This document shows positions 2,774-5,125 of a DNA stretch of 5,125 nucleotides, piece by piece. Origin of the DNA: a virus (taxonomy: Duplodnaviria; Heunggongvirae; Uroviricota; Caudoviricetes); IMG/VR virus record IMGVR_UViG_2713896784_000014; one strand, given 5' to 3'. The notes below the pieces were generated by a model. It made no database searches and was not told the DNA's origin. It saw only the letters and a list, made by a program, of their open reading frames with translations. The translations under genes were made by a program, and so were the position numbers. How positions within the stretch are numbered: the first letter of the stretch is position 1; every line of letters starts with the position of its first letter.

Positions 2774-5125
2774 ATGAGTAAAATCTTTATTTGCGCTGCT
2801 ATTCCTGACGAACAGGCCATAAAAGAAGATAGCGCTGTTGCGGTGGCCACTGCCATTGAAGCCGGTGATGAGCGTCGCGCACGCGCAAAATTTCACTGGC
2901 AATTTCTGGAGCAATTCCCGGCAGCTCAGGACTGCGCTTATAAATTTATTGTCTGCGAGGATAAACCCGGCATACCCCGCCCTGCCCTCGATTCCTGGGA
3001 TACCGAATATATGCAGGAAAACCGCTGGGATGAGGAGTCAGCTTCCTTTGTACCGGTCGAACCAGAATCCGATCCGATGAACGTCAATTTTGACAAGCTG
3101 TCCCCTGAAGTACAGAACGCAGTCCTGGTTAAATTCGACACATGCGAAAACATCACCGTTGATATGGTGATTAGCGCACAGGAATTACTACAGGAAGACA
3201 TGGCAACATTCGGCGGACATATCGTTGAAGCGTTGATGAAAATGCCAGAAGTTAACGCCATGTATCCTGAACTTAAACTGCATGCCATCGGGTGGGTTAA
3301 GCATAAATGTGAGCCTGGCGCTAAATGGCCTGAAATTCAGGCAGAGATGCGCATCTGGAAAAAACGTCGCGAAGGTGAACGCAAGGAAACCGGAAAATAC
3401 ACGTCTGTTGTTGATCTCGCCCGCGCCAGAGTCAACCAACAGAACCCTGAAAACGCTGCTGAAAAAACCGGGGCTGTCACTGTTGCCATTCGCCGCGAAT
3501 ACAAACAGACATGGAAAACACTCGACAATGAACTGGCCTGCGCCCTCTGGCCCGGTGATGTGGATGCAGGAAACATTGACGGTACCATCCATCGCTGGGC
3601 GACAAATGAGGTTATCGACAAGGATCGCGAAGACTGGAAGCGTATCTCAGCATCAATGCGCAAACAGCCCGAAGCACTTGGCTATGACCGTCAGACTATT
3701 TTTGGCCTTGTTCGCGAACGTCCGATCGATATTCACAAAGATCCCGTTGCACTGAACAAATATATCAGTGAATACCTGACGACAAAGGGCGTGTTTGAAC
3801 ATGAAGAAACAGACCAGAGCTCTACTGATGCTCTCCAGCCGTCAGCAGCACAAACTGCTCCAGTGGAGACGGCAGAATCCGATACTCAAAAAAATGAAAT
3901 CCTGGTGGAAGCTGAACCATCTGTAGAGCGTGAAGGACCATTTTATTTCGTCTTTACCGATAAGGGCGGGGAAAAATACGGCAGGGCAAACAAACTTTCT
4001 GGTCTGGACAAGGCGCTGGCTGCCGGCGGTACCGAAATCTCAAAAGAAGAATATTTTGCCCGAAAAAATGGCACATACACGGGCTTACCGCAAAATGTGG
4101 ATACCGCTGAAGATTCCGAACAATCAGAGCCGGTAAAAGTTACCGCTGACGAAGTAAACAAAATTATGCAGGCAGCCAATATCAGCCAGCCTGACGCCGA
4201 TAAATTGCTTGCTGCATCACGTGGTGAATTTGTTGAAGGGATTAGCGACCCGAATGATCCGAAATGGGTGAAAGGGATCCAGAGTCGCGACGCTGAGGAC
4301 CAGAATCAGCCCAACGTGAAACAAAATGAGCCAGAAGCGGAACAAAACAGCCCGGATACGCAACAAAACGGGCCAGAAGAACAACAACCAGAACCAGCAG
4401 TGCAACAGGAACTGGAAAAAGTTTGCACCGCATGCGGTCAGACCGGTGGCGGCAACTGTCCTGACTGTGGTGCGGTGATGGGGAACGCAACCTACCTGGA
4501 AACATTCGATGAAGAGAATCAGGCTGAAGCTCAGAAAAATGATCCGGAGGAAATGGAAGGCACTGAACATCTGCACAAGGAGAACACTGGCAGCGATCAG
4601 TATCACGCCAGCGATAATAAAACTGGCGAAACAGCAAATCCCTTAATTAAAGTGAACGGTCATCATGAAATCTCATCCACCAGCAGGTTGTGGCACCATC
4701 TGATGATTGACCTTGAAACAATGGGAAAAAATCCTGATGCGCCAATAAACTCTATAGCCGGTAAGTTTTTTGATCCGGCAACCGGAGAGATGGGGCCAGA
4801 ATTCAGCAAAACTATCGATCTGGAAACCGCAGGTGGGGTCATCGATCGGGACACCATTAAGTGGTGGCTGAAACAGTCACGCGAAGCACAATCCTCCATT
4901 CTGACCGATGAAATCACGTTGGATGATGCACTGCTGCAATTCCGGGAATTTATCGACGAAAACTCCGGTGAATTTTTTGTTCAGGTCTGGGGTAACGGTG
5001 CAACTTTCGACAACGTGATTTTACGCCGTTCATATGAACGGCAGGGGATCCCCTGCCCGTGGCGTTACACCAATGATCGCGATGTAAGAACGATGGTTGC
5101 TCTGGGACTGGTGATGGATTTCGAC
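2774..5125 (+). CDS. recE: RecE-like recombination exonuclease (exodeoxyribonuclease VIII-like), 784 codons with the 3' end beyond the window; C-terminal part carries DEDD/DnaQ-like 3'-5' exonuclease motifs
   Basis: Manual codon-by-codon reading from ATG 2774 (in-frame stop TAA at 2765-2767 just upstream) finds no stop codon through 5125. Missing from the ORF track, presumably because it has no stop in the window. Contains [28 protein letters not shown], which I recall as RecE-like. C-terminal motifs MIDLETMG (Exo I, about 4703-4726) and WGNGATFDN (Exo II, about 4991-5014). Sits where exo/bet-type recombination genes lie in lambdoid early-left operons. The gene symbol is by family resemblance only. 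Confidence 0.85.
   Translation, partial: [784 protein letters not shown]

Follow-up and report, generated by a model that had tools for sequence, protein, structure and literature searches.

Locus and reading frame

The window is the whole 5,125-nt stretch of DNA from the IMG/VR virus record IMGVR_UViG_2713896784_000014, and the element under study is a long open reading frame (ORF) in its second half, hereafter called the exonuclease. Direct translation of positions 2774-5125 on the forward strand gave 784 codons without a stop, as had been stated in an earlier reading made from the letters alone (the original prediction). The window corresponds to Escherichia coli O157:H7 EDL933 (NZ_CP008957.1, positions 2799710-2805042) with zero base differences outside N positions, and the frame is 100% identical to codons 1-784 of an EDL933 gene of 823 amino acids (aa). 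The remaining 39 codons and the stop, read from the EDL933 gene, fall past the window end.

It had also been pointed out that the frame was missing from the accompanying ORF list and that the listed ORFs within it were out of frame or antisense, and both observations were correct. The frame is absent because the listing omits ORFs that run off the end of the source; its absence is a listing convention with no biological meaning. A stop or frameshift splitting the frame was rejected, the window being identical to many complete genomes. The long frame belongs to a genuine prophage gene of E. coli, one that is very common and had been annotated before, and represents the intact version of ydfE, which is a pseudogene in K-12. 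The features of the gene are as follows:

2760-2763, forward strand: GAGG ribosome-binding site, 10 nt 5' of the ATG at 2774, read from the sequence
2774-5125, forward strand: codons 1-784 of the 823-codon prophage gene, intact ydfE orthologue, RefSeq WP_000034457.1 "exonuclease"
2774-3553, forward strand: YdfE-type N-terminal region (aa 1-260), PF27430 YdfE_N followed by PF27432 YdfE_C, from precomputed Pfam on the orthologue P0070
3557-4648, forward strand: region homologous to RecE 278-591 (aa 262-625), BLASTP E 4e-59
3926-4072, forward strand: small conserved domain ER-GPFY...GRANK...EI..EEY.ARK (aa 385-433), from conservation and structure models
4184-4288, forward strand: motif common to RecE (aa 471-505), near-identical in RecE and kept across scaffold types, with a ratio of nonsynonymous to synonymous substitution rates (dN/dS) of 0.10-0.19
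4409-4498, forward strand: putative zinc ribbon (aa 546-575), C551-x2-C554-x7-C562-x2-C565, aligned with RecE
4694-5125, forward strand: predicted DEDDh 3'-5' exonuclease domain, Rv2179c-like PF16473 (in-window aa 641-784), by Pfam; the domain ends at aa 813, past the window
4703-4726, forward strand: Exo I motif MIDLETMG (aa 644-651), with predicted catalytic residues D646 and E648, equivalent to D7 and E9 of T4 DexA
4988-5014, forward strand: Exo II motif WGNGATFDN (aa 739-747), with predicted catalytic residue D746, equivalent to DexA D119

C-terminal exonuclease domain

A Pfam scan placed PF16473 over aa 641-813 with 209.6 bits (E 3.6e-62) for the full-length protein and 165 bits for the part inside the window, against a cut-off of 27. 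When the scan was extended to E 10, no PD-(D/E)XK nuclease domain (PF12684) was recovered, and the scan gave no Pfam match besides PF16473. The domain search thus agrees with the expectation in the original prediction that a DEDD-type 3'-5' exonuclease stands in the place of the PD-(D/E)XK nuclease of RecE. The Exo I and Exo II motifs on which that expectation had been founded are both present, and the Exo III motif, for which inspection of the full C-terminus had been advised, was found in the 39 additional EDL933 codons as an H-x4-D motif, H796-N-A-L-H-D801, equivalent to DexA H186 and D191.

Catalytic residues were aligned using T4 DexA and three stand-alone phage homologues. The DEDDh set is complete (D646, E648, D746, H796 and D801), and none of the five varies among 21 homologues (86-100% identity), the same set in which the invariance of the cysteines described below was assessed. 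Only two solved structures were matched by sequence, 8kel and 8ken (E 1e-6), which are 227-aa chains named "Exodeoxyribonuclease" with the sequence of T4 DexA. The DexA active site corresponds to DnaQ D12, E14, D103, H162 and D167 (PMC12153337); the same paper prints E12 for the DexA residue that is E9 in the sequence. Together, the domain match and the aligned residues support the classification of the C-terminus as a predicted DEDDh (DnaQ-like) 3'-5' exonuclease of the Rv2179c/T4 DexA family. Taken jointly, the identity of the gene as an intact ydfE orthologue and this enzyme class are, in our judgement, very nearly certain.

N-terminal region and central scaffold

The nuclease had been described as sitting on a RecE-like scaffold, which proved right for the central region (aa 262-625) and wrong for the N-terminal ~260 aa. 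The latter carry YdfE_N and YdfE_C in place of PF06630, the RecE N-terminal Exonuc_VIII domain, which was absent from the exonuclease protein in the Pfam scan; precomputed Pfam records on P0001 and P0070 list both YdfE families. Residues 1-255 are 89% identical to ydfE of the K-12 Qin prophage, a copy cut by IS2, and it is for this reason that the frame was identified as the intact form of ydfE. PHROG 5943 covers aa 1-257.

Within the central region, identity to RecE is very high at aa 473-625, and the BLASTP alignment ends exactly at the start of the nuclease domains. The NCBIfam RecE equivalog NF007259 gave a partial match, confined to the central region, of 260 bits versus a cut-off of 1269. 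The same scan of K-12 RecE (Rac prophage) returned PF06630 at aa 2-178 and PF12684 at aa 615-850. Outside its nuclease (564-866), RecE consists of an N-terminal part without known function according to a 2023 review, and full-length RecE improves linear-linear recombination (PMC11611040).

The small domain at aa 385-433 is kept in YdfE-type scaffolds with any C-terminal module and is absent from RecE. Fourteen of its positions were invariant in 40 diverse YdfE-type sequences (E385, R386, G388, P389, F390, Y391, G399, R404, N406, K407, G418, E421, I422 and E426). An AlphaFold2 model of the exonuclease, built with 21 close homologues, had a mean predicted local distance difference test score (pLDDT) of 35, with only aa 385-433 above 70. 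In a model of the relative P0302 (described below), this domain reached a pLDDT of 81-83 and was confidently predicted as two short strands followed by a helix, a further strand and a second helix. The four cysteines of the ribbon are invariant in the 21 homologues and align with those of RecE by BLASTP, and the CxxC-x7-CxxC arrangement would be expected to bind metal. The linkers of the protein are long, acidic, of low complexity and rich in Q, N and P.

Selection and prevalence

Substitution rates were compared with three orthologues, one each from a second E. coli, from E. ruysiae and from E. albertii. Whole-gene dN/dS was 0.18-0.28. Across the folded modules (YdfE region, RecE-like segments, ribbon and DEDDh domain) the ratio was 0.07-0.23, including 0.11-0.18 for the N-terminal YdfE region and 0.07-0.17 for the zinc-ribbon segment, and in the acidic Q/N/P-rich linkers it was 0.30-0.91. 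The frame is under purifying selection, unlike a chance open frame. Full-length copies (coverage of at least 80%) were present in 3527 of 5426 complete E. coli genomes (~65%), where RefSeq names them "exonuclease", "3'-5' exonuclease" or "3'-5' exoribonuclease domain-containing protein".

Module swapping among relatives

Relatives were taken as the best 150 from a full-library search; 20 long ones were scanned with Pfam, and one profile search was added. Of the six conceivable pairings of N-terminus with C-terminal module, five were found:

PF06630 (RecE-type) N-terminus with PD-(D/E)XK nuclease: RecE
PF06630 N-terminus with DEDDh nuclease: P0124, P0127, P0135-P0137, P0146, P0147, P0156, P0164
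YdfE-type N-terminus with DEDDh nuclease: the exonuclease of the window
YdfE-type N-terminus with PD-(D/E)XK nuclease: P0138
YdfE-type N-terminus with a ~265-aa domain without a Pfam match: P0139, P0143, P0144, P0169, P0194, and 111 of the best 120 profile-search matches

One example is P0124 (805 aa), whose sequence tracks that of K-12 RecE at nearly every position as far as about aa 600, beyond which a DEDDh domain close to that of the window follows. Judged from its sequence, P0124 represents a clean natural exchange of nucleases. Modules are exchanged at the acidic linker immediately N-terminal to the nuclease. In most large fusions outside Escherichia the N-terminus is PF06630-like.

For the ~265-aa module, an AlphaFold2 model of P0302 was built (124 sequences, mean pLDDT 71.5). 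Its N-terminal alpha/beta domain (1-198) is followed by a helical one (232-339, pLDDT ~90), then by the small conserved domain (383-433) and finally by a C-terminal domain (510-794) with a beta-sheet-plus-helix layout. When this model was compared with viral models using Foldseek, 15 matches had E <= 1e-3, all to proteins of 170-324 aa; the named ones were "Rad52/59/22" and "RAD52-like DNA recombinase", with ERF and "single-strand annealing protein" just above the E threshold. The match was placed on the C-terminal domain because the target lengths and the beta-sheet-plus-helix layout agree, and the model suggests that this domain adopts a Rad52-like (Rad52/Mgm101/Sak) annealase fold. P0302-type proteins are probably the "RecE-2" proteins of Zheng et al., which have no nuclease and whose role is unknown (PMC12315714). 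An hhalign comparison of the RecE-2 C-terminal profile with P22-type Erf paired the expected helix motif at a probability of 0.1, which is not significant, and PDB sequence and profile searches were likewise negative. Since the YdfE-type scaffold occurs with nucleases of two kinds and also with an annealase-like fold, it was linked to recombination at DNA ends.

Operon and prophage context

Additional features of the window, the two genes being mapped from the EDL933 annotation and belonging to the same early-left operon as the exonuclease, are as follows:

2305-2493, forward strand: dicB
2490-2678, forward strand: ydfD-like DUF1482 gene
4677-4684, reverse strand: Chi site GCTGGTGG within the exonuclease gene, one of eight co-oriented prophage sites

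The order of genes is repressor, DUF1391 gene, small genes, dicB, ydfD, exonuclease, excisionase-like gene and integrase, and it is common to EDL933, K-12 Qin, Tritos, phage vB_EcoM-606R7 and seven P0070 loci. A check for a downstream recT- or bet-like annealase had been proposed and turned up none: in EDL933 a DUF4224 (excisionase-like) gene and then the integrase follow. By its EDL933 position, the exonuclease belongs to the early-left (pL-type) operon of a lambdoid O157:H7 prophage, in which xis-int comes directly after it. At the far end of this prophage lie espJ and an EspF-repeat gene. The integrase beside the exonuclease is frameshifted in EDL933 (L001:11715-12762), and the prophage may be unable to excise although the exonuclease is intact.

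Related loci were scanned using one genome per species, which returned 80 loci. Among these were 23 intact large fusions (641-828 aa) and three frameshifted ones (L016, L018 and L092). Large fusions were hosted by Escherichia, Enterobacter, Dryocola, Kluyvera, Buttiauxella, Klebsiella, Citrobacter, Atlantibacter, Kosakonia, Phytobacter, Pluralibacter and Leclercia. An integrase lay within ~1.2 kb downstream in all 23 intact large fusions, with an excisionase-like gene between in most. A tblastn search seeded with RecT, Bet, Erf, lambda Exo and Gam gave no match within 7 kb of any of the 23. Pfam annotation of 138 upstream ORF clusters gave repressors, replication proteins and YdaS/YdaT, and none of the 25 commonest families was an annealase family. 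The annotation of the EDL933 prophage (L123) likewise shows no annealase, Gam or RecBCD inhibitor.

Stand-alone homologues of 182-200 aa were found at ~50 loci. At some of these loci the homologue immediately precedes xis-int (phage LLS, 53% identity in tblastn), and at others it belongs to an erf-ssb-exo-abc2 module (Salmonella phage g341c, 52% identical).

Chi sites were counted over the EDL933 prophage (L123:5400-49000), where GCTGGTGG occurs 8 versus 1 times by strand; a first-order Markov expectation is 1.5 versus 0.6, and the strand with eight sites corresponds to the conventional lambda top strand. This count fits the class of Chi-rich lambdoid phages without an anti-RecBCD function.

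The DicF small RNA was not detected at the Rfam threshold upstream of dicB (window 1400-2800), and no RNA reached the Rfam gathering score anywhere in the window. The sole signal nearby was a sub-threshold STnc100 match at window 2119-2337 (29.5 bits versus a cut-off of 47).

Enterobacterial-type copies of the gene or of its domain were seen in assemblies labelled Veillonella parvula, Geobacteraceae, Actinomycetes and Chryseobacterium (L017, L037, L056 and L078), the L017 copy being even flanked by dicB and ydfD; these off-lineage copies are probably binning or contamination errors. In the window itself, a run of 50 Ns at positions 218-267 replaces 258 nt of the reference, part of a ydaT-like gene in complete genomes, so that the ydaT-like ORF seems broken in the window. 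There is also a single N at position 2058. Both appear to reflect masking of the source record or gaps in its assembly.

Comparison with known systems

Among the known counterparts is Tritos gp27, which has been published as the prototype of "nuclease-only" recombination modules; it is an orthologue of 823 aa that is 85% identical over its full length and lies in the same dicB-ydfD-gene-xis-int operon. K-12 YdfE (Qin) is an orthologue that has lost the second half of the scaffold and the nuclease to IS2. DicF is present upstream in both Tritos and Qin, unlike the prophage of the window at the Rfam threshold. RecE (exonuclease VIII, Rac) resembles the exonuclease in size, in its early-left position near int, in the central region, in the shared motif and in the CxxC-x7-CxxC ribbon. 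It differs in having a PF06630 N-terminus, a PD-(D/E)XK 5'-3' nuclease and an adjacent recT, whereas the exonuclease has a YdfE N-terminus, a predicted DEDDh nuclease and no annealase.

Among stand-alone proteins, LLS gp34 and Salmonella g341c/epsilon34 gp30 are 52-57% identical to the C-terminal domain, depending on the method, and at 180-190 aa have no scaffold, unlike the exonuclease. LLS gp34 lies directly before xis-int like the exonuclease, in a phage without a Rec module; the g341c copy lies between ssb and abc2, next to erf. Both were noted as stand-alone DnaQ-like exonucleases by Zheng et al. 2025 (PMC12315714). T4 DexA, a 3'-5' DNA exonuclease (PMC12153337), belongs to the same Pfam family with the five DEDDh residues aligned and is just 27% identical. 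It is a stand-alone protein of 227 aa with extra loops and a W152/D169 pair that recognizes 5-hydroxymethylcytosine (5hmC), and W152 corresponds to Thr766 in the exonuclease. Mycobacterium tuberculosis Rv2179c, the name-giver of PF16473, is described by Pfam as an exoribonuclease and was too distant to turn up in the PDB sequence search with the exonuclease. Rv2179c is a small stand-alone bacterial protein. The E. coli protein EcD ("HREX") is a stand-alone DexA-family DEDDh exonuclease which, judging by the cloning primer, starts at the Exo I motif. Its authors report that the 5hmC-recognition Trp is retained, that the enzyme breaks down 5hmC DNA and that, when plasmid-borne, it protects E. 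coli from T4 (PMC12153337). Primer searches retrieved an EcD-like protein of 189 aa, whose end does not match the reverse primer, with only 39% identity.

Lambdoid Rec modules and, sporadically, int-proximal spots carry DnaQ-like 3'-5' nucleases (Zheng et al. 2025, PMC12315714). In Table 1 of that paper the "Tritos" class comprises four phages with a nuclease but no annealase, single-stranded DNA-binding protein (SSB) or anti-RecBCD function and with 7-21 top-strand Chi sites, and phages without anti-RecBCD are argued to form concatemers via Chi and RecBCD. The prophage of the window shows the same properties: 85% identity to gp27; an annotation and tblastn results free of annealase, SSB and anti-RecBCD genes; and 8 versus 1 Chi sites, where the paper's threshold is at least 4 on one strand. 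The gene is a Tritos-type "nuclease-only" recombination-module nuclease. Its architecture is already known, through the RefSeq annotation, the Pfam families for its domains and the class noted in PMC12315714.

Proposed role and alternatives

Enzymes of the DEDDh type act by two-metal hydrolysis at a free 3' end. By this mechanism the exonuclease would remove nucleotides from free 3' ends, a polarity opposite to that of RecE. From the context of the gene, the substrate would be phage DNA ends after induction, and the RecE-family scaffold may tether the enzyme or direct it to its target. RecBCD requires ends that are blunt or nearly so, and the trimmed ends could be shaped for the host RecBCD-RecA pathway, leading to phage recombination and concatemers. 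This 3'-end-trimming role was ranked as the likeliest because of the lack of an annealase or RecBCD inhibitor together with the eight co-oriented Chi sites; a link with recombination is also suggested by the 52%-identical stand-alone homologue inside an erf-ssb-exo-abc2 module. The explanation as a whole, namely an intact ydfE orthologue with a DEDDh exonuclease and a role at the 3' ends of phage DNA, is the one we favour, by a modest degree of belief. The specific proposal that it trims those ends after induction and thereby aids host RecBCD-RecA recombination and concatemer formation is tentative, and we would sooner see it revised than accepted as it stands. A broader view still, that the RecE- or YdfE-type N-terminal and central regions are an interchangeable delivery scaffold, coupled by prophages to various DNA-end modules, and that the DEDDh version is a distinct factor committing phage ends to the RecBCD-Chi pathway and not a degenerate RecE, its phages having given up their own annealase, is speculative and rather doubtful.

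Several points weigh against the favoured explanation. The exonuclease's own structure prediction, at a mean pLDDT of 35, was unusable as a model. Polarity and substrate were deduced from family membership, and the name-giver of the family is an exoribonuclease in the Pfam description. The 3'-5' exonucleases usually inhibit homologous recombination (Zheng et al. 2025, PMC12315714). The frameshifted integrase in EDL933 means that the copy in that strain may serve the host instead of the phage, and the Chi bias could partly be an adaptation to the host chromosome, which is itself Chi-oriented. Finally, in the literature on ydfE, and on Rv2179c with prophage, no functional, biochemical or genetic test of the exonuclease was found.

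The best-surviving alternative is a defence or superinfection-exclusion nuclease that would attack the DNA of incoming phages at its 3' ends, on the model proposed for EcD. Membership of the same Pfam family as T4 DexA and the protection from T4 conferred by plasmid-borne EcD (PMC12153337) speak for it, and retention in 65% of complete E. coli genomes, many copies probably being in defective prophages, fits a benefit to the host. The Trp needed for activity on T4 DNA (W152 in DexA; PMC12153337) is, however, Thr766 in the exonuclease, and the equivalent position varies among T, C, Y, W and V in the large fusions; it is kept as Trp in LLS gp34, g341c gp30 and the EcD-like protein. EcD itself is without the 640-aa scaffold, and the EcD-like 189-aa protein shares just the 39% identity given above. 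PADLOC returned no significant match or system assignment (E 0.03 over 23 residues), and the gene is in the repressed early-left operon and not beside the repressor, the usual place of exclusion genes expressed in lysogens. We consider a defence function unlikely.

Lower again we place an RNA substrate as for Rv2179c, which could be the early-left transcript, small RNAs of the operon or host RNAs after induction. Pfam calls PF16473 a 3'-5' exoribonuclease domain, many RefSeq copies carry the name "3'-5' exoribonuclease", and the processed small RNA DicF is encoded just upstream in related operons. Set against this, the closest characterised phage relatives (T4 DexA and the DnaQ-like genes of Rec modules) work on DNA, the scaffold is common to DNA enzymes (RecE, PD-(D/E)XK nucleases and a Rad52-like domain), and the window's prophage has no DicF at the Rfam threshold. 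An RNA substrate therefore appears improbable.

It is very improbable that the gene is a decaying remnant without function that is open only by chance. Such a history is suggested by the K-12 copy cut by IS2, the frameshifts in three scanned species, the split gene in phage vB_EcoM-606R7 and the interruption by IS1203 in one strain. The selection analysis contradicts it, with every folded module having a dN/dS well under 1; in addition, the cysteines and catalytic residues are invariant, a frame of the same 823-codon length is retained in E. albertii and E. ruysiae as well as in E. coli, and the viable phage Tritos carries the gene. That the protein is a true RecE (exonuclease VIII), a 5'-3' double-stranded DNA exonuclease working with an annealase, is hardly credible and was refuted at the sequence level, for although phage records name the gene "exodeoxyribonuclease VIII" and NF007259 matches in part, the match is far under its cut-off, PF12684 and PF06630 are both absent, a DEDDh domain holds the nuclease position and no recT, bet or erf is nearby.

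Significance

As the outcome of a genome scan, the finding amounts to reading correctly a gene that had been annotated before, and its value lies in the missing experiments and in the clean module swapping. The exonuclease is among the commonest prophage genes of E. coli (~65% of complete genomes), and no experiment on it was found in the literature; the pseudogene status of the K-12 copy probably explains this neglect. The large N-terminal and central part of RecE emerges as a reusable scaffold on which 5'-3' and 3'-5' nucleases have been exchanged at a defined junction. This scaffold is of practical weight, because efficient linear-linear recombineering needs full-length RecE. Should the DEDDh version indeed aid recombinase-less phages via the RecBCD-Chi route, this would supply a missing piece of the "no Rec module" lifestyle recently proposed for lambdoid phages.

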